The position numbers and the translations under genes were made by a program. Positions 1 through 11,659 of a stretch of 11,659 nt of DNA are shown one piece after another. The notes under the pieces are model-generated. The model was not told the DNA's origin. It saw only the letters and a program-made list of their open reading frames with translations, and ran no database searches. Within the stretch, counting starts at the first letter, position 1; each line of letters opens with the position of its first letter. Source of the DNA: a virus; UHGV virus genome UHGV-1582668. One strand, given 5' to 3'.

Positions 1-139
1 CAATCGACGATTGCTGGAAAGGCTGGGCCATACTCCTCCGGCAGAAGCAGAAAAAGCTTATTATGCTTCCATCGGAAACGATGATCTGGCAGCCTGAGTT
101 CACAGATAAAATACTCTCCAGGAAACCCGGGGCGGTTCA
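1..139 (+). mobile_element. 3' terminal fragment of an IS3-family insertion sequence (IS629/IS1203-like): last 31 codons of the transposase (2..97) plus the right terminal inverted repeat ending ...CCCGGGGCGGTTCA at 139; the rest of the element lies left of the window
   Basis: Frame starting at nt 2 translates to NRRLLERLGHTPPAEAEKAYYASIGNDDLAA followed by TGA at 95-97, a typical C-terminus of IS3-family OrfB/InsF-type transposases. The segment ends in ...TCA, matching the 5'-TG...CA-3' termini of IS3-family elements. Positions 1-139 are the exact reverse complement of 11521-11659. Assignment to IS629 specifically is from memory and unverified. Confidence 0.8.
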
Positions 140-163
140 AATGCCTGGTCAGCAACGCAGGAT

Positions 164-2284
164 ATGCGTGAGCAGATTATTGAGGCTCAGCGTTTCGTCC
201 GGGTGTCCGGCGCACAGTGGGAAGGCAGCACAAACGCTGGTTACTCATTTGATGAAGGCAGGTTTGAGCATTATCCGCGTTTTGAACTGAATAAGATTTC
301 CCGTGAATGTGATCGCATCATTGGCGAGTATCGACAGAATCGCATCAGCGTTAAATTCAGGCCGAAGGATGACAAGGCATCGGAAGCTTTAGCCGAAAAA
401 ATGAACGGCAAATTCCGCGCTGACTATCAGGAAACATCCGGTGGCGAAGCGTGTGATAACGCATTTGATGATGCCGTAACGGGTGGATTCGGTTGTTTCC
501 GCATGTGTGCCGATTACGAAGATGAAATGGATCCGAGTAACGAGCAGCGCCGCATCAGCCTTCTTCCTGTTTACGACCCAGCGACATGCGTCTTCTTTGA
601 TCAGGACAGCAAGCAATATGACCGCTCTGATGCTATGTGGGCTATGGAAATGTTCTCCATGACGCCTAAAGCGTTCGAGGCTGAATACCCTGATTCCATC
701 GCGGCAAGCCTTTCTCGTGATGACACTGGCACTCAATATGACTGGTCAACGCCAGATGCCATCTATGTTGGACGTTACTACGAAGTCCGCATAGAGAAGG
801 TGAAGCTCACGGCGTGGCGCAACCCTGTTAGCGGAGAAACGGCAATCTATGATGAAGATCAAATCAAAGATATTGTCGACGAGCTAACCGATGGCGCATT
901 CGAACTGATTGGTGAGCGAACGGTGAAGAAACGCCGCGTTTATTGCGGCCTTCTGTCTGGCGCTGAATGGCTGGAAGAACCGAAGCGTATTCCGGGCGAA
1001 CATATTCCACTCATCCCGGTATATGGGCGTCGCTCATTTGTTGATAATCAGGAGCGAATCGAAGGCCACGCAGCAAAAGCGATGGATGCACAGCGTCTTG
1101 AGAACCTGATGGTTTCCATGATTGCAGATAACGCCACTCAGGCTGGCGGTGATGGCATTCCTATCGTGGATGTTGATTTCATTCCCGGCCCATTAATGAA
1201 TCACTGGGCAGAGAGGAATAAGAAAAGACCTGCAGTTCTTCCTATGACCAGCAAGAAGGACAAAAACGGAACAGTCATTTCAGAAGCTCAGGTTGCTGGC
1301 TGGACACCTCCGACACAAATGCCGCCAGCTCTTGCCGGGCTATTGCAGTACACCGGAACGGCTATTCAGCAAATTACAGGTGCGTCGCAGCTTGAGAACA
1401 TGCCGAGCAACGTCGCTACCGATACCGTTGATAGCATCTTTAACCGGATGGACACGCAGTCCTATATCTACATGGACAACATGGCTAAATCCATGCGCCG
1501 TGCTGGCGTCGTGTGGCTTTCTATGGCTCGTGAAGTCTATGGCAGCGATACGCCAATGCGCATCGTTAATGAGGATGGCAGCGATGACGTGGCGCTGATG
1601 ACTGGTGAAGTGGTTGACCGTCAGACAGGGCAGGTTATCGCGCTTAACGACCTTTCGCAGGGTAACTATGAAGTGACTGTCGATGTCGGTCAGTCGTTCG
1701 CTACTCGCCGTGACGCAACGGTTAAGTCGTTACTTTCCATGCTGGCACTTATCCCGCCCGGAACGCCGAAACACGACCTTGTATCGTCGATGATCCTCGA
1801 CAATATGGACGGCGAAGGGATGGACGACCTTAAAGAATACAACCGCAATCAGTTGCTTCTGTCTGGAGTTATCAAGCCGAGAACGCCAGAAGAACAGCAG
1901 ATGGTTGAGCAGGCGAAACAACAACAGGCCAGTCAGCCAGATCCGGCTATGGTTGCTGCGCAAGGTCAGCTTCTTGCTGGTCAGGCTGAATTGCAGAAAG
2001 CGCAGAACGAGCAGGCAGCCATTCAGGTTAAAGCATTCCAGGCACAGACTGATGCTCAGGTTGCAGCGGCAAATGTTGTGAAAATCCTCGCATCTGCCGA
2101 TAGCCAGCAGAAATCTGATATCCGCGAGGCTCTGAAACTGCTCGGACAGTTCCAGCAACAGCAAGGAGACAATGCCCGTGCTGATGCAGAGCTTGTCCTG
2201 AAAAGTCAGGCACAGGGCCATGCGCAGCGCATGGACATCAGCAGCATCCTGCAAAAATCAACTCAGCAACAACCACAGCAGTAA
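164..2284 (+). CDS. Portal protein, P22 gp1 family, 706 aa from the first ATG; appears 5'-truncated by the IS junction at 139/140
   Basis: Long ORF at the expected position upstream of scaffold and coat. Translation shows motifs recalled from P22 portal (FRPKDD, ADYED, KKRRVY, GEHIPLIPVYG) and a Gln/Ala-rich C-terminal tail consistent with the portal barrel. Phage-derived sequence in this frame is open from nt 140 with no ATG or Shine-Dalgarno before 164; by offset against P22 gp1 roughly 13-20 N-terminal codons are missing. Confidence 0.88.
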   Translation: MREQIIEAQRFVRVSGAQWEGSTNAGYSFDEGRFEHYPRFELNKISRECDRIIGEYRQNRISVKFRPKDDKASEALAEKMNGKFRADYQETSGGEACDNAFDDAVTGGFGCFRMCADYEDEMDPSNEQRRISLLPVYDPATCVFFDQDSKQYDRSDAMWAMEMFSMTPKAFEAEYPDSIAASLSRDDTGTQYDWSTPDAIYVGRYYEVRIEKVKLTAWRNPVSGETAIYDEDQIKDIVDELTDGAFELIGERTVKKRRVYCGLLSGAEWLEEPKRIPGEHIPLIPVYGRRSFVDNQERIEGHAAKAMDAQRLENLMVSMIADNATQAGGDGIPIVDVDFIPGPLMNHWAERNKKRPAVLPMTSKKDKNGTVISEAQVAGWTPPTQMPPALAGLLQYTGTAIQQITGASQLENMPSNVATDTVDSIFNRMDTQSYIYMDNMAKSMRRAGVVWLSMAREVYGSDTPMRIVNEDGSDDVALMTGEVVDRQTGQVIALNDLSQGNYEVTVDVGQSFATRRDATVKSLLSMLALIPPGTPKHDLVSSMILDNMDGEGMDDLKEYNRNQLLLSGVIKPRTPEEQQMVEQAKQQQASQPDPAMVAAQGQLLAGQAELQKAQNEQAAIQVKAFQAQTDAQVAAANVVKILASADSQQKSDIREALKLLGQFQQQQGDNARADAELVLKSQAQGHAQRMDISSILQKSTQQQPQQ

Positions 2285-2374
2285 TTAACCCATAACGTGC
2301 AATGGCTGTCTTTATGAGGCCTGGCACCCTATTGCCTTCCGATGGGCTGAACATCGAGTAAACAGGGGTAACAA

Positions 2375-3268
2375 ATGGACCAGATGGCAGAAAACACACC
2401 AGAAGTTGAAATCGAAACCGACGCGTCAGAGCAGATTCCTGATGATGTCGAACTGGCTGAAAAAGTCGAAACAGAAGATGGCAGTGAGTCCTCAGGCAAT
2501 GATGCAGAGGAGGCTACTGAAACTGATGACGACGAATCAGAACAGGAATTCTACTTTGGTGACGAAAAGCTGGATTCGCCAACCAGCGAAGATGGCGCTG
2601 AGCATGGACTGGTAAAACACCTGCGCAAGACGATTAAAGAGAAAGACCGCGAGCTGAAAGAGCTGATGCGTCAGTCTCAGAAACCCGTCGAGCAGCAGCC
2701 GGTAATCACTCAACCACCGCGAATGCCAAAACTGGATGATGAGGACATCGGTTTCGATGAAGAAATCTACCAGCAACGCATGGCTAAGTGGGCAGAGGAT
2801 AATGGCAAGTACCAGCAACAGGAGATGGCTCGCAAGCAGAAGGAGCAGGAGCTTCAGGCTGCCTATCAAGAGCGATTATCCAAATATCAGCAACGTGTTA
2901 AGGCTCTCAAAGTTCCTGGCTATCAGGAAGCTGAGCAGGCCGTACTCGAGGAAATCCCCATCGAGACACAAAACGCGATCCTGTTTGAGTCAGAGAAGCC
3001 GGAAATCGTTGTTCTGGCGCTTGGTCGCAACGCTGAACTGCGCAAGCAACTGGCAGAAGCTACCAACCCCGTAGCAATTGGTCGTCTGCTGGAACGTATC
3101 GAATCGAAGGCCAGAATCATGCCAAAAGCAAAAACCACGGCAGCCACAACCCCGACGGTTAAGGGGAGCAACGGCGCAGTAATCAACAACCTCGACAAAT
3201 TGAAAGCCAAGGCGCTGGAAACTGGTGACTGGACGCCGTATTTCGCCGCTAAAAAGGCAAAAAAATAA
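2375..3268 (+). CDS. Scaffolding protein, P22 gp8-like, 297 aa
   Basis: Sits between portal and coat; size close to P22 gp8 (303 aa as recalled). Strongly acidic N-terminal third, charged and coiled-coil-like middle, basic C-terminus ending ...KKAKK as expected for a coat-binding helix-turn-helix. Shine-Dalgarno AGGGG 5 nt upstream of the ATG. Confidence 0.8.
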   Translation: MDQMAENTPEVEIETDASEQIPDDVELAEKVETEDGSESSGNDAEEATETDDDESEQEFYFGDEKLDSPTSEDGAEHGLVKHLRKTIKEKDRELKELMRQSQKPVEQQPVITQPPRMPKLDDEDIGFDEEIYQQRMAKWAEDNGKYQQQEMARKQKEQELQAAYQERLSKYQQRVKALKVPGYQEAEQAVLEEIPIETQNAILFESEKPEIVVLALGRNAELRKQLAEATNPVAIGRLLERIESKARIMPKAKTTAATTPTVKGSNGAVINNLDKLKAKALETGDWTPYFAAKKAKK

Positions 3269-3286
3269 CCTATTGGAGCATTAAGC

Positions 3287-4540
3287 ATGGCTAACCAATT
3301 AGCAAAAGACCTTGAAATCATGTTCGAAAACTACGTTGAAGGCTTTGAGGCCGCCTGCGTAGTTTCCCGTAACGCTAAAAAATTCCGTCCCGGTGATACA
3401 GCAATGCAGCGAGCAGGTGATGTTCTGTATCGTCCGCAGCATTACCACATGAATATTGAGGAAGGCCTCGACCTCAGCAGCAAAACGCCAACAGCACTGG
3501 TTCAGCGCCTTGTTCCTTCAGTGTTCAAGGAGCCGAAAAACATTCTGTACACTCTGGATGCGCGTGAAATGCGTGATCCGGAACATAAAACTGAAGCTGG
3601 TCGCGCCGCAGGTATGCGCCTTGCTGCACAGATTGACTCTGACCTGATTTCCATGGTCACGCAGCGTGCTACTAACGTGATCACGATGGCTGACTCAACC
3701 GCAGGTACACAGGGCCGTGATTTGTGGAACTGTGCGGCAGGTATTGATGCCACCATGACGGCGATTGGTGTACCTCAGGGTATCAACCGTCGCTCTTTCT
3801 GGAACCCCTTCAACTACAAAGACCTTGCTGGCGAGCTTGGTCACCGTGCCTATGCTCAGGGCGCAACCCTGACAGCATACGAAAAAGCGCAAATCCCTCC
3901 GGTTGCGTCCTTCGATAGCTACAAGACCGATATTTCTGGTCGATTACCGAAAGGAAGCACTGAATCCTTGACAGTATCAGGCCAACCTGAACACAAGGTT
4001 GAAGCGAAAGATTCAAATGGTATGCCAGTTGATAACCGACAGGGGACTATTACGGTATCTGCATCTGGCTTGCAGGTTGGTGATGCGTTCACCATTGCCG
4101 GTGTGAATTCCGTACACCAGATCACAAAAGATACCACCGGTCAACCGCAGGTATTCCGTGTTCTGGCTGTTAGCGGAACTACCGTAACAATTTCTCCAAA
4201 GATTCTCCCTGTTGAAAATACTGATGTTGCGAGTCGTCCATATGCAAACGTCGATGCCAAACCGGCAGAATCAGCAGCAATCACCATTCTCAACAAGAAC
4301 GCAGCACCTGCTAACCTCTTCTGGGCTGATGGTTCTGTTGAGCTGATGTACGGCAAACTGGCATTCCCGACAGGTCAGGGTCCACAGGTAATGACAGCAA
4401 CCACCGAGCAGGGCGCTACGCTGATCATGTCTTATGCCTTCGACCACATCAAAGGCGTAACCACTGCTCGTTTCACCACTCTGTACGGTTGCTCTGTACT
4501 TGTTCCTGAATATACGGGCATCGTTATTGCCGGGCAGTAA
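3287..4540 (+). CDS. Major capsid (coat) protein, P22 gp5 family, 417 aa
   Basis: Position immediately after scaffold; size near P22 coat (430 aa as recalled). Segments alignable to recalled P22 coat motifs (AKKFRPGD...MQRAG; NLFWADGSVELMY versus P22 NVFWADDAIRIV). GGAG Shine-Dalgarno 8 nt upstream. Followed directly by a strong intrinsic terminator, typical of a highly expressed coat gene. Confidence 0.88.
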   Translation: MANQLAKDLEIMFENYVEGFEAACVVSRNAKKFRPGDTAMQRAGDVLYRPQHYHMNIEEGLDLSSKTPTALVQRLVPSVFKEPKNILYTLDAREMRDPEHKTEAGRAAGMRLAAQIDSDLISMVTQRATNVITMADSTAGTQGRDLWNCAAGIDATMTAIGVPQGINRRSFWNPFNYKDLAGELGHRAYAQGATLTAYEKAQIPPVASFDSYKTDISGRLPKGSTESLTVSGQPEHKVEAKDSNGMPVDNRQGTITVSASGLQVGDAFTIAGVNSVHQITKDTTGQPQVFRVLAVSGTTVTISPKILPVENTDVASRPYANVDAKPAESAAITILNKNAAPANLFWADGSVELMYGKLAFPTGQGPQVMTATTEQGATLIMSYAFDHIKGVTTARFTTLYGCSVLVPEYTGIVIAGQ

Positions 4541-4546
4541 TTTTGG

Positions 4547-4569
4547 TGGGGCTTCGGCCCCATTTTTAT
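4547..4569 (+). terminator. Rho-independent terminator or attenuator downstream of the coat gene
   Basis: Perfect 6-bp GC-rich stem TGGGGC (4547-4552) and GCCCCA (4557-4562) around a TTCG tetraloop, followed by TTTTTAT (4563-4569). Begins 7 nt after the coat stop codon. Confidence 0.75.
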
Positions 4570-4581
4570 TGGGAGAAGACA

Positions 4582-4770
4582 ATGGCACGAACAATGCTCT
4601 ATAAGCCTGGCAACATGATCACCTGTGGTCAGTTTGCTGTCGATTACGTCATTGTTGATGACGAAGAAGTTAAATCTCACCTGAAAAAAGGTTGGGTAAA
4701 AACTCCTGAAGAAACCGCAACGAAGCAAAAAGTGGCTAAGGCGGAAGAAGATGGCGAAAACGAAGGGTGA
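4582..4770 (+). CDS. Small hypothetical protein, 62 aa, in the coat-to-gp4 gap (conserved small-ORF position in P22-like phages)
   Basis: ATG at 4582 preceded by a strong Shine-Dalgarno GGGAGAAG at 4571-4578. The ORF track's start at 4543 is a TTG lying inside the terminator hairpin and is unlikely to be used. The 3' end overlaps the gp4-like start by 20 nt. Acidic C-terminus (AEEDGENEG). Function unknown. Confidence 0.5.
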   Translation: MARTMLYKPGNMITCGQFAVDYVIVDDEEVKSHLKKGWVKTPEETATKQKVAKAEEDGENEG

Positions 4771-5212
4771 TCTCGTTCTAAAGGCTTTACGAAAAGCCGG
4801 GCTGTATTCCAATGCCACGTTGACAGATGCTGACCCTCAGGCAATTGAAGATGCCATTAATGACCTCGAAGACATGATGGCAGCATGGCAGGCTAAAGGT
4901 ATCGAGCTTGGATATCAGTTTGCTGATACAGAAAACGGCATCATGCCGTTACCTGACGATGATTCAGGTATCCCTGCATGGGCAAATGATGGCGTCGCTT
5001 TGAAACTCGCTGTGCAAGTGTGCATGGATAACGTCATTCAGCCGTCAGACGCTCTCCTTACCGCTGCTGACAGTGCATATCAGACAATCTGTATCGCTTT
5101 AACCAAAATACCACCACTTGAGCGGCGAAATGACATGCCTCGCGGTAGTGGTAACAAAAGCGCGTTTACGTGGAATCGGTTTTACATCGAGAAAGATGAT
5201 CCGAGTACGTGA
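4751..5212 (+). CDS. Tail accessory / head completion protein, P22 gp4-like, 153 aa
   Basis: Position and size match P22 gp4 (166 aa as recalled). N-terminus MAKTKGDLVLKALRKAGL...ATLTD resembles recalled P22 gp4 (KTKGDLVRAALRKLG...ATLTD); also a shared PRGSGN-type motif near the C-terminus. Shine-Dalgarno GGAAGAAG upstream. Confidence 0.8.
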   Translation: MAKTKGDLVLKALRKAGLYSNATLTDADPQAIEDAINDLEDMMAAWQAKGIELGYQFADTENGIMPLPDDDSGIPAWANDGVALKLAVQVCMDNVIQPSDALLTAADSAYQTICIALTKIPPLERRNDMPRGSGNKSAFTWNRFYIEKDDPST

Positions 5213-5221
5213 GGTGAATAA

Positions 5222-6640
5222 ATGCCGATTCAGCAACTTCCGCTTATGAAAGGTGTCGGCAAAGACTTTAGAAACGCCGACTATATCGACTATCTGCCAG
5301 TGAATATGTTGGCTACACCCAAAGAAATCCTTAACAGCAGCGGATATCTTCGCTCATTCCCGGGCATTGCCAAACGCTCTGATGTAAACGGTGTATCGCG
5401 CGGAGTTGAGTACAACATGGCGCAGAATGCTGTTTATCGCGTGTGTGGCGGCAAGCTGTACAAAGGAGAAAGTGAAGTCGGTGATGTTGCCGGAAGTGGT
5501 CGTGTATCAATGGCGCATGGTCGAACATCTCAGGCTGTAGGCGTTAATGGTCAACTGGTTGAGTATCGCTATGATGGCACGGTTAAAACCGTCTCAAACT
5601 GGCCTGCAGACAGCGGATTTACGCAGTATGAGTTAGGTTCAGTCCGCGACATTACACGCTTACGTGGGCGTTATGCGTGGTCAAAAGACGGCACGGATTC
5701 ATGGTTTATTACTGACCCTGAAGACGAATCGCACCCTGACCGATACAGCGCACAATATCGCGCAGAATCGCAGCCTGACGGCATTATCGGCATCGGAACA
5801 TGGCGAGACTTCATTGTCTGCTTTGGTTCATCAACGATTGAATATTTCTCCATGACTGGTGCAACCACTGTTGGTGCCGCTTTGTATGTCGCACAGCCAT
5901 CGCTGATGGTGCAGAAAGGTATTGCCGGGACTTACTGCAAAACGCCGTTTGCTGATTCGTATGCGTTCATCAGCAATCCGGCAACAGGCGCGCCTTCTGT
6001 ATACATCATCGGCTCCGGTCAGGTATCACCAATAGCCAGCGCGAGCATTGAGAAAATCCTCCGCTCCTACACTGCTGATGAACTGGCTGATGGCGTGATG
6101 GAATCGTTGCGGTTTGATGCTCATGAGTTGCTGATTATTCACCTGCCGCGCCACGTCCTCGTGTACGACGCATCTTCAAGCGCCAATGGTCCGCAATGGT
6201 GTGTACTGAAAACAGGCCTGTATGACGATGTGTACCGCGCTATCGACTTCATTTACGAAGGCAACCAAATTACGTGCGGCGATAAGCTTGAATCGATGAC
6301 AGGGAAATTGCAGTTCGATATCAGCAGCCAGTACGACAGGCAACAGGAACACCTGCTGTTTACTCCGTTGTTCAAAGCGGATAACGCCAGAGTTTTCGAC
6401 CTTGAGGTTGAGTCGTCAACTGGCGTTGCGCAGTATGCTGACCGCCTTTTTCTCTCTGCAACCACTGACGGCATCAATTACGGGCGTGAGCAGATGATTG
6501 AGCAGAATGAACCGTTCGTTTACGACAAACGTGTTTTGTGGAAGCGAGTAGGGCGCATCAGGAAAAATGTCGGCTTCAAATTGCGCGTTATCACGAAGTC
6601 ACCTGTCACTCTGTCTGGTTGCCAGATAAGGATTGAGTAA
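5222..6640 (+). CDS. Tail hub / packaged-DNA stabilization protein, P22 gp10-like, 472 aa
   Basis: Same length as P22 gp10 as recalled and the same position after gp4. N-terminus MPIQQLP... as recalled for P22 gp10. Shine-Dalgarno GAGGTG 5 nt upstream. Stop overlaps the next start (TAATG). Confidence 0.85.
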
Positions 6641-7341
6641 TGGCTGATTCGAATCTCAATGAGCCGGTAACAATTCAGGCTACACGACTCGATACATCAA
6701 TCCTTCCACGCAATATATTCAGCCAGTCTTACCTGCTGTATGTCATTAATCAGGGGGCTGATGTCGGCGCAATTGCCGGGAAGGCAAATCAGGCTGGTCA
6801 GGGCGCTTACGATGCCCAGGTAAAAAACGATGAACAGGATGTCGAACTGGCTGATCACGACGCAAGAATCACCGCAAACACAAAAGCGATAAATCTACTT
6901 GAGGTCAGGTTAACAACTGCCGAAGGGAAGATAGTCGTACTGCGTAGCGATGTTGATTACTTGCTGGATGAGGTTATCGATATTCAGGCGCATCTGGTCA
7001 CTGTTGACCAAAGACTGGATGACGTAGAAAACGATGTCTCTGGCATTAAGAGTGATTACGTATCGAAAACCGTAACCGAATCGCAGTCTCTTGCGTCACC
7101 GCTGGATGTAAAAACATCATATTCAGTTGATGGAATTCAGGTTGTTGGAGCAAGAAATACCGGATGGACTGCAGCCACAGGTACACCTCTTCTTGGCTCA
7201 TTCAACGCTAACCAGTCATACACGGTCGGCACTACGTACACACAATCCGAAGTCGCGGCTCTCGCTACAGGTTTGCAGCAGGCGCGGCAGCGTATTCTGG
7301 CGATTGAAACGGCACTTAGATTACATGGGCTGATTGACTGA
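6640..7341 (+). CDS. Tail needle (cell-puncturing plug) protein, P22 gp26-like, 233 aa
   Basis: Same length as P22 gp26 as recalled. N-terminal region ([20 protein letters not shown]) followed by a heptad-repeat coiled-coil-like centre and C-terminus ...[20 protein letters not shown], matching the trimeric needle architecture. Translationally coupled on both sides (TAATG, TGATG). Confidence 0.85.
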
Positions 7342-7796
7342 TGATTACATTCAAACCAACGCGAAACATCGACCTGATAGAAGCCGTAGGAAATCACCAT
7401 GACATTATCGCCGGGAGCAACAACGGTGATGGATACGACTACAAACCTGAATGCCGTTACTTTGAGGTGAACGTGCACGGGCAGTTCGGCGGAATTGTTT
7501 ACTATCAGGAGATTCAGCCGCTAACCTTTGATTGCCACGCCATGTACCTGCCAGAGATTCGCGGCTTCAGCAAGGAAATCGGGCTGGCGTTCTGGCGATA
7601 CATTCTGACTAACACCACCGTTCAGTGCGTCACATCGTTCGCTGCACGCAAATTCCGCCACGGGCAGATGTACTGCGCAATGGTTGGCCTTAAGCGTGTA
7701 GGAACCATCAAGAAATACTTCAAAGGCGTGGATGACGTGACGTTTTACAGCGCCACACGCGAAGAACTAATCGACTTCCTGAATCACGGGAGATAG
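7341..7796 (+). CDS. Hypothetical protein at the P22 gene 14 position (gp14-like head assembly / DNA-delivery accessory), 151 aa
   Basis: Located between the needle and the first ejection-protein gene, where gene 14 sits in P22. Start overlaps the needle stop (TGATG). Contains several Cys and His residues. Assignment rests on position only; I cannot confirm sequence similarity from memory. Confidence 0.5.
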   Translation: MITFKPTRNIDLIEAVGNHHDIIAGSNNGDGYDYKPECRYFEVNVHGQFGGIVYYQEIQPLTFDCHAMYLPEIRGFSKEIGLAFWRYILTNTTVQCVTSFAARKFRHGQMYCAMVGLKRVGTIKKYFKGVDDVTFYSATREELIDFLNHGR

Positions 7797-7798
7797 CC

Positions 7799-8488
7799 AT
7801 GTTATATGCATTTAAGCTGGGCAGAAAACTGCGCGGCGAGGAACCTTATTGCCCTGAAAAAGGCGGGAAAGGTGGCTCCGATAAAAGTGCAAAGTATGCC
7901 GCAGAAGCTCAGAAGTATGCCGCAGACCTGCAAAATCAGCAGTTCAACACCATCATGAATAACCTGAAGCCGTTTACTCCTCTGGCTGAGAAGTATGTCG
8001 GCAGCCTCGAGAACTTATCGTCTCTGGAGGGGCAAGGTCAGGCACTTAACCAGTATTACAACTCTCAGCAGTATAAAGACCTTGCAGGTCAGGCTCGCTA
8101 TCAGAGTCTGGCGGCAGCGGAAGCAACAGGTGGATTGGGTTCCACCTCAACCAGTAATCAGTTAGCAACAATCGCACCAACGCTTGGTCAGCAATGGCTA
8201 TCTGGACAAATGAACAACTACCAGAATCTGGCAAATATTGGTCTTGGCGCGCTTCAGGGGCAGGCAAATGCTGGGCAAACATATGCCAACAACATGAGCC
8301 AGATTTCACAGCAAAGCGCGGCTCTTGCAGCGGCAAACGCCAACAGACCATCAGCAATGCAATCTGCTATTGGCGGAGGTGCGTCTGGTGCCATTGCTGG
8401 GGCTGGACTTGCGAAATTAATTGGTTCATCAACTCCGTGGGGGGCTGCGATCGGCGGCGGTCTTGGTCTGCTTGGCTCGTTGTTTTAA
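7799..8488 (+). CDS. Ejection (DNA transfer / injection) protein, P22 gp7-like, 229 aa
   Basis: Same length as P22 gp7 as recalled; N-terminus MLYAFKLGRKLRGEE... matches my recollection of gp7. Gln/Asn/Ala-rich centre and a Gly/Ala-rich hydrophobic C-terminal tail (AIGGGASGAIAGAGLAKLIGSSTPWGAAIGGGLGLLGSLF). Shine-Dalgarno GGGAG upstream. Confidence 0.8.
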   Translation: MLYAFKLGRKLRGEEPYCPEKGGKGGSDKSAKYAAEAQKYAADLQNQQFNTIMNNLKPFTPLAEKYVGSLENLSSLEGQGQALNQYYNSQQYKDLAGQARYQSLAAAEATGGLGSTSTSNQLATIAPTLGQQWLSGQMNNYQNLANIGLGALQGQANAGQTYANNMSQISQQSAALAAANANRPSAMQSAIGGGASGAIAGAGLAKLIGSSTPWGAAIGGGLGLLGSLF

Positions 8489-8497
8489 GGGGTAATC

Positions 8498-9913
8498 ATG
8501 GCTACGTGGCAACAGGGTATTAATTCTGGTGGTTTTCTGGCTGGCATCGGTACGCAAAATGAGAATGCGCCAAAGGCAAGCGACATTAACGCAACGCTTG
8601 GTCTGATCCGCGAAAACAATGAACTGGCTCGCTCAGGTGCAAATAACATTGGTCTGACCGCGTTACGTGGTCTGGCTGGAGTTGCTGATATTTACAATCA
8701 GGAACAGCAACAGAAAGCTATTAGTGCGTTCAATAAGGTTCACGCTGATGCATGGGCTTCTGGTGATCCATCTGGACTATTTAAGTTTGCCCAGGAAAAT
8801 CCAGCGTTTGTTGCACAGGCACAACAGGCGTTTTCCGGTCTTAATGAGCAGCAACGCAACGATATGGGCGATTTAGCCATGAGGGCTAACGTCGCTCTTT
8901 CCCAGGGACCGGAAGCCTACAGTAAATTCATTACTGACAACAAGGACAGGTTAAATCGCGTGGGGGCGAATGCTGACTGGATGATTCAGACAGGTATCCA
9001 GAATCCAGAGCAGCTATCACACATGCTGACTACTATGTCTCTCGGTGCGCTTGGACCAGAAAAGGCGTTTGCTGTTCAGGACAAGATGGCTGGTCGTGAA
9101 ATTGACCGAGGCAAACTGGCAGAGACAATCCGCAGCAATCAGGCTGGAGAAGCACTTCAGGCGAGAGGGCAAAACCTTTCCTATCAGTCAGCAATGACTG
9201 GGCACAATATCGCAGCACAACGCTTGGCTCTGGATCAGCAAGAGTTCGGGTTTAAGATGCAGCAAGCGCAGGAAAAGGCTCAGCAGTTGATTAGTGAAGC
9301 ACCTAAGCTGTCAGTAAACATGGAAAAAGGCATCGAGACGGCTGTAAACAATGCCACAGCATCATCAAACTCAGCCAATTCTATGAGTGCGCTTGCTCAA
9401 CAGTTCAGAGCAGAAAAACCAACGACAGGTTTGTTCGGTAACGCACAGAACATGTTCGCAAAACTTACCGGAAGCGATACGACATTGCGTGATTTGCGCA
9501 TCCGCCAAAATGCCCTTGTTAACAGTCAGGTTCTTAAATTCCTACCTCCCGGCCCAGCAACGGATAAAGACGTTGAGATCGTTCGACAGGGTGCGCCAAC
9601 TGACATGGATAACCCTGAGACGGTCGCAAGATGGCTTGATGCAATGGCAAACCTTGAGCGACGAAACGCGCAGTTTAATGAGTTTAAAGCCGAGTGGATG
9701 AGCGCGAATGGCAACCCTGGACAATCGCGTAATGGCGGTCAGATATTGGGGTTGGATGTTAAAAAAGGTGAATCACTGGGGAGTGCCGTTAAGCGGTATA
9801 TGTCAATGAATACTGACGCAGCGCCAGCACAAGATTCGACACCTTCAGGAGAACCACGGAATCAGGTTGGATCATATACCTCAAAATCAGGCATTCAATT
9901 TACGGTGGAATGA
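8498..9913 (+). CDS. Ejection (DNA transfer) protein, P22 gp20-like, 471 aa
   Basis: Same length as P22 gp20 as recalled and in the conserved order gp7, gp20, gp16. Shine-Dalgarno AAGGGG upstream; stop overlaps the next start (ATGA). Confidence 0.75.
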
Positions 9914-11523
9914 TGAAAGTAACTGCAAACGGTAAGACATTTACCTTTCCTGATGGTACGAGCACCGAAGATATTGGGGCCGCCATTGATGAGTATTTTG
10001 CTGGTCAGGCTGTTCAGCAACAAACAGTTAATCAGGCCAATAATGCACCAACACGGGAAGAACCATCATTGATGCAACAAGCTGGCGATTGGCTCACAGG
10101 TGGTCAAAGTGCAGGGCAAATTGCAGAACAGGCTGGTCGTGGTCTGGTAAACATACCATTTGACGTATTGCAGGGTGGCGCAAGTCTGATTAATGCAATC
10201 AGTCAGGGGCTTGGTGGTCCAAAAGTATTGGATGATGTCTATCGTCCAGTCGATCGACCGACAGACCCTTATGCGCAAACTGGAGAAACAATTGGCGGGT
10301 ATTTAGTTCCAGGAGTTGGAACGGCAGGAAGCATGGCTATTGGATCACTGGCAGAGGCCGCAAATCAGAAAGGCGATTTCGCACAAAATGCAGCAAAAAA
10401 TGCCGGAGTTAACCTTGCCGCTCAGGGGGTTCTTTCCGCAGCAGCAAAGGGAATAGGGCGTGGAATAACGGCTATAAAAGGTGATATTGCGCCAGAAGTG
10501 GCGAAGAAAATTGCCACATCAGAATCGATGGGCGTGACACCAATGACATCTGATGTTATCCCGCCGAAAAATGCTTTCACTCGCGGCCTTACTCAGGATG
10601 CCGAGGGGGCTTTGCTCGGGACAGGTTCAAAGCGTGCGGAGCAATATGCAAAAAGAAGTCAGCTAGTTAAAAAACAGCTTGAGAAATATGGTGAATATAG
10701 CCCATCAGTTGTTGTTGACGATCTGTATGGTTCTCTGAAGTCAAGGAAGGATTCAGCTGGAAGCGTTATTGAAGACATTACAACTAAAATGGGAGATACA
10801 CCTGTTGACACATCAAAATCCATTAAGGTTATCGACAACGTGCTTACCAGGGCTAACAGGCTTGGGAAAGTGGCAAATAAGGATTTGATTCGCGGGCTAT
10901 CCGATTTGCGAGAAGAGCTTGCTAAACCAGATGTAGATTTTGGACTATTGAGAGAGTTGCGGTCAGCATTAAGGGAAAGTATTCAGGGAGATGCCATGGT
11001 TTTTCCTAATAGCGCGAAAGCCGCAACTGATGCCGTGGAGAGGGCAATGGGTTCAGATTTGAGGAATAACGCAGCACGGTATTTGGGGGCTGGAGAGGCT
11101 GCCAGATACGTCAAAGCAAACTCTGACTACTCCAACGTCTTCAATAAGGTTCTCAATAAAAGGATTGCGAACAATCTCAACAAAGCTAAAAAAGAGTTTA
11201 CTCCAGAGCTAATAAACAGCGTTGTATTCAGCAGAAAACCATCAGATATTAAGAGGATATGGCCTGCTCTTAGTGAAGATGGAAAGAACGCTATGCGTGC
11301 TGCTTATATTAGCAAGATTGCAGAAAAGGCAGGAGACTCGCCAACAAAATTTCTTACCGAGTTAAATAAGTTGAAGTCGCAATCTGACGGTCAGATATAT
11401 AACACGATATTCAGTGGGAGACACATGAAAGAGCTTGATGCTCTTCATGAAGTTCTACAGCAAACAGCAAGGTCAGACATCGCAAATGTTGTAACTCAGA
11501 CAGGGCAATCGCAAGCCAACTGA
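9910..11523 (+). CDS. Ejection (DNA transfer) protein, P22 gp16-like, 537 aa; apparently 3'-truncated, with its stop codon supplied by the first three bases of the flanking IS end
   Basis: Third gene of the conserved ejection-protein trio. ORF ends on TGA at 11521-11523, which is exactly the terminal TGA of the IS inverted repeat, so the reading frame runs straight into the IS. P22 gp16 is about 609 aa as recalled, implying roughly 70 C-terminal codons are missing. Confidence 0.7.
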
Positions 11524-11659
11524 ACCGCCCCGGGTTTCCTGGAGAGTATTTTATCTGTGAACTCAGGCTGCCAGATCATCGTTTCCGATGGAAGCATAAT
11601 AAGCTTTTTCTGCTTCTGCCGGAGGAGTATGGCCCAGCCTTTCCAGCAATCGTCGATTG
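11521..11659 (-). mobile_element. 3' terminal fragment of a second, inverted IS3-family insertion sequence copy (IS629/IS1203-like): transposase C-terminal 31 codons on the minus strand (11563..11658) plus terminal inverted repeat beginning TGAACCGCCCCGGG at 11521
   Basis: Exact reverse complement of positions 1-139 (139 of 139 nt). Same features as the left copy in the opposite orientation; the element body must lie right of the window. Confidence 0.8.

Follow-up and report, generated by a model that had tools for sequence, protein, structure and literature searches.

Two inverted right ends of an IS629-type element flank the structural module of a CUS-3/P22-like Escherichia coli prophage in a metagenomic contig

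The window analysed here, the whole 11,659-nt stretch of UHGV virus genome UHGV-1582668, carries at its two extremities the inverted right ends of an IS629-type insertion sequence (IS) of the IS3 family, and between them lie head and DNA-ejection genes from a CUS-3/P22-like prophage of E. coli. Two inverted right ends abutting a P22-like structural module imply two IS-derived ends in one genome, and the arrangement was probably produced when two copies of this common element disrupted a resident CUS-3-like prophage in one E. coli strain. The IS ends flanking the segment are real but ordinary. The coordinates of all features are given in Table 1.

Table 1. Features of the 11,659-nt window, with position, strand and basis of assignment.
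Feature	Position	Strand	Basis
IS629-type IS3-family right end, cut by contig end	1..139	+	identical to last 139 nt of the reference copy
Last 31 codons of orfB	2-94	+	identity to reference OrfB C-terminus
orfB stop codon	95-97	+	
Right inverted repeat, ending ...GGTTCA	about 112-139	+	
Portal gene without its first 18 codons (54 nt)	140..2284	+	Pfam P22_portal E=6e-166; PA45B comparison
Scaffolding protein gene	2375..3268	+	scaffold annotation in related prophages/phages; no Pfam match
Major capsid (coat) protein gene	3287..4540	+	Pfam P22_CoatProtein E=2e-76
Small 62-aa ORF, kept in intact prophage	4582..4770	+	gene calls
gp4-type tail accessory/head completion gene	4751..5212	+	Pfam P22_Tail-4 E=7e-41
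gp10-type packaged-DNA stabilisation gene	5222..6640	+	Pfam Phage_stabilise E=3.5e-299
gp26-position tail needle gene	6640..7341	+	P22 gene order; annotated tail needle/phage tail protein in relatives; no Pfam match
gp14-position gene (DUF2824)	7341..7796	+	Pfam DUF2824 E=1.6e-52
gp7 ejection protein gene	7799..8488	+	Pfam P22_gp7 E=1.7e-131
gp20 ejection protein gene	8498..9913	+	Pfam Inj_translocase
gp16-type ejection protein gene, IS-truncated, without its last 72 codons	9910..11523	+	PA45B comparison
Second copy of the same IS right end, opposite orientation, cut by contig end	11521..11659	-	reverse complement of 1-139

Direct comparison of bases 1-139 with 11521-11659 confirmed the first-pass annotation of these ends as exact reverse complements (139/139). 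A repeat search reported arms of 1-146 and 11514-11659 at 98% identity; the perfect match ends at 139 and the 7 nt past it are chance, and a chance origin cannot account for a 139-nt perfect inverted match in 11.7 kb. Frame 2 of the left arm (bases 2-94) translates to NRRLLERLGHTPPAEAEKAYYASIGNDDLAA, followed by a stop codon, and the OrfB protein of a full 1,310-bp reference copy, whose final 139 nt match those of the window exactly, ends in the same peptide. The element terminates in ...GGTTCA at position 139 and in TGAACC... at position 11521 (+ strand), and the IS right end directly adjoins phage DNA at both junctions. The earlier description of each end as the last 31 transposase codons plus the right terminal repeat, both pointing inward, is therefore correct by reading frame and by the reference copy, with the right ends facing the intervening phage DNA.

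Matches to the 139 nt occur in 6,199 E. coli records and reach an identity of at least 99% in 2,755; all are annotated as IS3 family transposase. Copies annotated in this way are 100% identical to the repeat in thousands of records, which bears out its earlier assignment to the right end of an IS629-type element of the IS3 family. The 1,310-bp IS629/IS1203/IS3411-type element is present in about 4,000 of the 5,426 complete E. coli genomes. Its reference copy (1,310 bp, termini TGAACCGCCCCGGG...) has TG..CA ends, terminal inverted repeats matching at 25/28 positions, an orfA of 108 aa with an HTH_Tnp_1 domain, an orfB in the -1 frame with HTH_21, rve (E=5e-28) and rve_3 domains, and an ALIL frameshift pseudoknot (RF01497, 120 bits). 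Two full copies of the element elsewhere are flanked by 3-bp target duplications (CTG and AGA). Both window ends agree with the TG...CA termini of the IS3 family, the right repeat alone being present in the window; likewise, the window holds only the last 31 orfB codons, and the frameshift signal and the DDE (rve) transposase domain, the catalytic core of which falls beyond the contig, are known from the reference copy sharing the identical 139 nt. Aligned over its full length with O157:H7 copies that PGAP labels IS1203, the reference copy shows 96.0% identity, and over its first 795 nt (1-795) it is 99.6% identical to a copy labelled IS629 family. In the terminal 60-80 nt, identity to O157-type copies is only about 90-93%, so that, as judged from these bases, the IS of the window is a variant common among non-EHEC E. 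coli.

The 11.4 kb between the repeats were recognised by Pfam as a P22-type morphogenesis/ejection module, with the families P22_portal, P22_CoatProtein, P22_Tail-4, Phage_stabilise, DUF2824, P22_gp7, Inj_translocase and Phage_P22_gp16. The genes follow the order portal-scaffold-coat-gp4-gp10-gp26-gp14-gp7-gp20-gp16, with Pfam matches in 8 of the 10 large ORFs, in the expected order. Across the 11,381 nt of positions 140-11520, 15 complete genomes show 100.0% identity, and the alignments stop exactly at 140 and 11520. The identical prophages belong to human extraintestinal E. coli isolates, e.g. PA45B (ST95, phylogroup B2, K1), and are located at tRNA-Arg/yfdC together with intS, a tailspike gene and a neuO-type acyltransferase gene with an AAGACTC repeat. 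A Shigella or enterohaemorrhagic host, as proposed in the first-pass annotation, is not supported by this identity. The comparison with IS-free relatives that it recommended was provided by PA45B, in which the same stretch lies, collinear and without any IS, inside an intact prophage.

Comparison with PA45B placed both junctions exactly (slashes mark the breakpoints). The portal gene is interrupted 54 nt into the gene (PA45B TTTGAT/AATGCC, window GGTTCA/AATGCC), and the gp16 gene, 608 codons long in PA45B, is interrupted 219 nt before its end (PA45B GCCAAC/AGGATA, window GCCAAC/TGAACC), the stop codon of the truncated gene (TGA, 11521-11523) being the first bases of the IS end. Neither junction was found in any of the 5,426 complete RefSeq E. 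coli genomes using 121-nt junction-spanning queries. The 537-aa gp16::IS product matched seven contigs, all of which end inside the IS; the left junction is represented only by the identical contig in three samples. Six left-junction-specific products had zero exact matches in a collection of 15 billion proteins, and the two inner-junction DNA patterns had 0 matches in IMG/VR; in the JGI metagenomes the inner junction, included as a control, was found in one contig. The first in-frame ATG of the truncated portal gene lies at 164 and gives a called product of 706 aa, which is not specific to the junction, as gene callers choose the same internal ATG in intact prophages. A consensus scan detected no promoter-like site at either junction, and a hybrid outward promoter at the IS-portal junction was rejected on this result.

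The window is the entire contig k141_191 of a MEGAHIT short-read metagenome assembly (ena:ERZ27234353), and three samples yielded the same contig. The length of the repeat is set by the assembler and not by biology, since the assembly graph breaks inside the multicopy IS. Unable to resolve that element, the assembler stopped about one k-mer (139 nt at k=141) inside each copy, and the two k-mer-length stubs appear as a neat 139-nt terminal inverted repeat. The right junction recurs, 100% identical over 2.9 kb, in independent assemblies, two SPAdes contigs and one Logan contig, with IS overhangs of 55, 37 and 28 nt versus 139 nt for MEGAHIT at k=141. Every contig recovered ends within the IS and none crosses either copy. 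As the repeat length reflects assembler truncation of a window that is a whole contig, the 139/139 identity is uninformative on recency or gene conversion, and the first-pass reading of it as a sign of either does not hold. On a short-read contig, a neat terminal inverted repeat can thus be a k-mer-length stub that the assembler left of a multicopy IS, and where it is, its length and perfect identity hold no evolutionary information. A single IS on a circular molecule was rejected as a source of the two ends, because both are right ends, and the left end of the element diverges from the right one beyond 14 nt.

Under the favoured explanation, two IS copies would have inserted in opposite orientation, one after the first 54 nt of the portal gene and the other ahead of the last 219 nt of gp16, with the right end of each facing the intervening 11.4 kb. 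We infer that both ends belong to full-length 1,310-bp copies in one genome, that each copy arose by simple copy-out/paste-in insertion with a 3-bp duplication (predicted AAT and AAC), and that the remaining prophage persists beyond both copies. The outer junctions predicted under simple insertion are ...CAACTTTGATAAT/TGAACCGCCCCGGGAATCC and GGATTCCCGGGGCGGTTCA/AACAGGATAAGGACG. Portal and gp16 are both essential in P22; since both are broken here, the prophage should, by analogy, make no infectious particles.

Predicted outer junctions were searched for as protein and as DNA. Ten exact outer-junction products, covering 3-bp and 0-bp duplications, several starts and edge truncations, were absent from the 15-billion-protein collection, and the predicted DNA of both outer junctions gave 0 matches in IMG/VR, as did that of the outer junction in the JGI metagenomes; the searches were low-powered, since the lineage contributes just one low-coverage contig there. 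Used as a homology query, the missing 72-aa C-terminus of gp16 returned only homologue fragments starting at an internal Met, with no IS fusion. This absence of the simple-insertion junctions (IRL+AAC+gp16 3' end; portal 5' end+AAT+IRL) wherever they were searched, including the collection in which one assembly holds the inner junction, would fit an IS-mediated rearrangement. The 11.4-kb segment would then be an isolated remnant, the rest of the prophage having been removed, relocated or inverted by recombination between the IS copies or by adjacent deletion, and the outer flanks would not be the missing portal and gp16 pieces. We consider this unlikely: the searches, made in low-coverage assemblies with short ORFs and one relevant sample, were weak, the complete match to intact prophages (0 differences across 11,381 nt) fits a very recent disruption in situ, and two simple insertions need no extra events. 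Inversion between identical inverted IS copies leaves all junction k-mers unchanged and is resolvable only by reads longer than 1.3 kb.

The source being a MEGAHIT metagenome assembly, portal::IS and gp16::IS could also derive from two E. coli strains whose minority uninterrupted paths were pruned, leaving both junctions in one contig; the right junction was seen in four other contigs in which the state of the portal gene is not visible, and the insertions need not always co-occur. This is distinctly improbable, as the identical 11,659-nt contig was obtained from three samples and a strain with an intact portal or gp16 gene would have created a graph branch at 140 or 11520, where the contig would end instead of reaching 139 nt into the IS. 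We regard it as very improbable that, in a circulating ST95-like gut lineage, the two inverted IS629-type copies turn the 11.4-kb head/ejection-gene block into a cassette that recombination can invert or mobilise. If so, the arrangement would go beyond passive prophage decay and could, for example, act as a switch that uncouples the structural genes from late transcription, with the capsule-modification gene neuO of the prophage retained. The composite-transposon-like architecture suggested in the first-pass annotation, in which two inverted IS copies would mobilise the structural module as a unit, draws on the architecture alone (two right ends of the same IS around the segment, visible up to the contig ends) and is scarcely credible, given that the boundaries lie inside genes and correspond, in exact collinearity, to the intact resident prophage that relatives carry at tRNA-Arg/yfdC, that among the 128 genomes containing 80% or more of the window the segment occurs in no other genomic context and nowhere as a unit at a new site with one target duplication, that the cargo has no selectable function, and that two left ends would have to form the outer limits of the unit, and these were not seen.

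Two insertions in a resident prophage remain the preferred explanation, and would amount to two IS629-type insertions expected to inactivate the CUS-3-like prophage of an ST95/K1-like E. coli lineage present in several metagenomes. The junction sequences are possible lineage markers, and current understanding is unchallenged: this is routine IS-driven prophage disruption, as already documented for IS629, most copies of which in O157 sit in prophages (PMC3271280).

Among known systems, the prophages CUS-3 and phiv205-1 of K1 ExPEC/APEC share the gene order from portal to gp16 with the window and are 96-97% identical over about 81-83% of the insert, whereas the distal gp16 is mosaic here, without alignment to either, and portal and gp16 are interrupted in the window. 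As judged through the reference copy, the window's IS resembles IS629, IS1203 and IS3411, the latter two being treated as isoforms of IS629 (PMC3271280), in its right end, 1,310-bp size, orfA/orfB organisation, ALIL -1 frameshift and 3-bp duplications, although each copy in the window is known for 139 nt only; like IS629, with its documented preference for prophages (PMC3271280), both copies lie in a prophage. The contig also resembles repeat-induced de Bruijn contig breaks, in that both ends stop about one k-mer into a multicopy repeat and the overhang length varies with the assembly. Unlike a pure assembly artefact, however, its junctions are genuine biology, and only the repeat length and the apparent symmetry are artefactual.

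Positions 1-139 and 11521-11659 of the window are perfect reverse complements, a match that chance cannot produce in 11.7 kb; repeat-finder arms reach 146 nt at 98%, the 7 nt past position 139 being chance. The phage DNA between them (140-11520) was found at 100.0% in 15 complete genomes (0 differences over 11,381 nt), and all 15 alignments end exactly at 140 and 11520. In Escherichia coli PA45B the matching stretch lies within an intact prophage without the IS. Set against the PA45B genes, window base 140 falls 54 nt inside the 732-codon portal gene, and the 608-codon gp16-type gene runs on for 219 nt past window base 11520. The intact TTTGAT|AATGCC reads GGTTCA|AATGCC at the left junction of the window, and GCCAAC|AGGATA reads GCCAAC|TGAACC at the right, where the IS terminus supplies the stop codon (TGA) of the truncated gp16 ORF.

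Frame 2 of positions 2-94 reads NRRLLERLGHTPPAEAEKAYYASIGNDDLAA, with a stop at 95-97 and 42 nt more to ...GGTTCA and the terminus at base 139. Among 5,426 complete E. coli genomes, 4,068 have matches to these 139 nt (6,199 records in all), and the 2,755 records with ≥99% identity are always labelled 'IS3 family transposase'. The 139 nt are exactly the last 139 nt of a full 1,310 bp reference copy in E. coli 4/2-1 (NZ_CP023834.1; L001:1330-2639), which starts with TGAACCGCCCCGGG, ends with CCCGGGGCGGTTCA, has terminal inverted repeats agreeing at 25/28 positions and has the 3-bp duplication CTG on either side; for a second full copy, from a different genome, the duplication is AGA. The reference copy encodes OrfA (108 aa, HTH_Tnp_1) and, in the -1 frame, OrfB (296 aa; HTH_21, rve and rve_3), with the ALIL frameshift pseudoknot RF01497 at 120 bits. 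Identity is 96.0% over the whole length to O157:H7 copies labelled IS1203 family by PGAP, and 99.6% over the first 795 nt to a copy labelled IS629 family; since IS1203 and IS3411 are treated in the literature as IS629 isoforms (PMC3271280), 'IS629-type' is a fair label.

The right inverted repeat of the IS contains a small GC-rich hairpin (CCGGGTTTCCTGG; 118-130 and 11530-11542) and then, in the direction of the element's interior, a T-rich run; a consensus scan marks it as terminator-like on the strand entering the IS from outside. The reference copy interrupts a P4-like satellite prophage (L001 1-5139) with genes for a polarity suppression protein, ogr/delta, a truncated 'glycoprotein 3' and an Icd-like protein, and Rfam places C4 antisense RNA and isrK near it.

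The ORFs of the insert follow the canonical P22 order, with matching Pfam families. The nearest named phages, phiv205-1 (97.4% over 83%) and CUS-3 (96.2% over 81%), are P22-like phages of K1 APEC/ExPEC.

Open reading frames of the phage insert, in window coordinates
Feature	Position
Portal	164-2284
Scaffold	2375-3268
Coat	3287-4540
62-aa ORF	4582-4770
gp4	4751-5212
gp10	5222-6640
Tail needle	6640-7341
gp14/DUF2824	7341-7796
gp7	7799-8488
gp20	8498-9913
gp16	9910-11523

Of the terminator-like hairpins in the window, the best (GGTGGGGC-TTCG-GCCCCATT, then TTTATT; 4545-4564) lies 5 nt past the coat stop codon, upstream of the 62-aa ORF and gp4. The gp16-type gene is mosaic in its distal two-thirds (about 10300-11520): alignments to phiv205-1 and CUS-3 end at ~10,163-10,334 within the 11,381-nt insert, and Salmonella phages Emek and ST-35 match to the insert end at 86-87%. 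Within gp16 (11427-11520) an in-frame ATG has GGGAGA just upstream, and homologous C-terminal pieces of ~100 aa from that Met are stand-alone calls in several other assemblies (for example P0001, with 28 member sequences), which may reflect frequent gp16 disruption or gene-caller behaviour.

PA45B is ST95, phylogroup B2, with a K1 capsule (PMC5654933). Its prophage lies at tRNA-Arg/yfdC with intS, a tailspike and an acyltransferase that has 20 AAGACTC repeats ahead of it in an uninterrupted run (20.3 copies, L011 11295-11436), which is the CUS-3/neuO arrangement (PMC3046976). Type and arrangement therefore point to K1 extraintestinal E. coli as host, and away from Shigella and EHEC. Zero differences from the 15 genomes, of which at least PA45B is typed as ST95/K1, suggest that this lineage has either shared the prophage type very recently or inherited it clonally. 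In E. coli AREA_R504 (NZ_CP123315.1; L003 20290-21660) a 1,310 bp IS copy of the same type, with 1 mismatch to the 139 nt and a 3-bp duplication AGA, sits inside the AAGACTC run and presumably would lock neuO off; this run is poly-psi, the phase-variable repeat found at the 5' end of neuO, the capsule O-acetyltransferase gene of CUS-3 (PMC3046976).

The window is a complete contig (ena:ERZ27234353:k141_191, 11,659 nt; MEGAHIT, k=141 graph), identical in 3 samples. In protein look-ups the gp16::IS fusion protein marks the right junction specifically. That junction was also found in two SPAdes contigs and one Logan contig from other samples (100% identity over 2.9 kb), with IS overhangs of 37, 55 and 28 nt in that order. 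Each of these assemblers halts ~1 k-mer into the multicopy repeat; the IS overhang varies by assembly and is therefore set by the assembler, not by biology, so that 139/139 identity is uninformative on recency or gene conversion.

No contig crossing either IS was retrievable. Exact look-ups of 10 predicted outer-junction fusion or edge products and 6 left-junction products found none, four junction DNA patterns had no match in IMG/VR, nor an outer-junction pattern in JGI metagenomes, and the missing C-terminus of gp16, used as a homology query, did not reveal the outer junction. These negatives are weak because, as the positive control shows, a single low-coverage contig represents the lineage in the JGI set.

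A single IS copy giving both right ends was ruled out, as the left and right ends diverge past 14 nt; the genome must therefore contain two inverted IS-derived ends. On the simplest history, resident IS copies would have inserted twice, independently and by copy-out/paste-in, into a CUS-3-like prophage already in the genome, once at portal codon 19 and once at gp16 codon 537. In the 100%-identical ST95-type genomes a record has as many as 8 matching places, most of them IS-end matches. Infectious P22 particles are known to need both portal and gp16, and the prophage should therefore be disabled. That sequence comparison shows no further difference from intact prophages suggests that the disruption is recent. 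The right insertion may be the older event, its junction occurring in more assemblies than the left demonstrably does.

An IS-mediated deletion or inversion that has cut the segment off from the remaining prophage seems unlikely; inversion between identical copies keeps all junction k-mers and is thus undetectable in short-read assemblies. That the assembler merged junctions of two strains is quite improbable. A true composite transposon is hardly credible, as both boundaries keep their collinearity with the resident prophage and no other context of the segment was seen among 128 genomes carrying at least 80% of the window. The first-pass annotation described both ends exactly (139/139 complementarity, last 31 transposase codons), and its IS3/IS629-type assignment, inverted orientation and P22-like cargo hold; its reading of the 139-nt identity as recent events or gene conversion, its Shigella/EHEC host and composite-transposon behaviour are wrong or unsupported.

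The feature brings together an IS and a prophage type that are both known, along with an ordinary assembly break. IS629 insertions concentrate in prophages, where 62% of those in O157 genomes lie (PMC3271280). Other related prophages carry IS insertions too: strain 1368KP has an IS66-like element, for example, and AREA_R504 an IS3-family copy.
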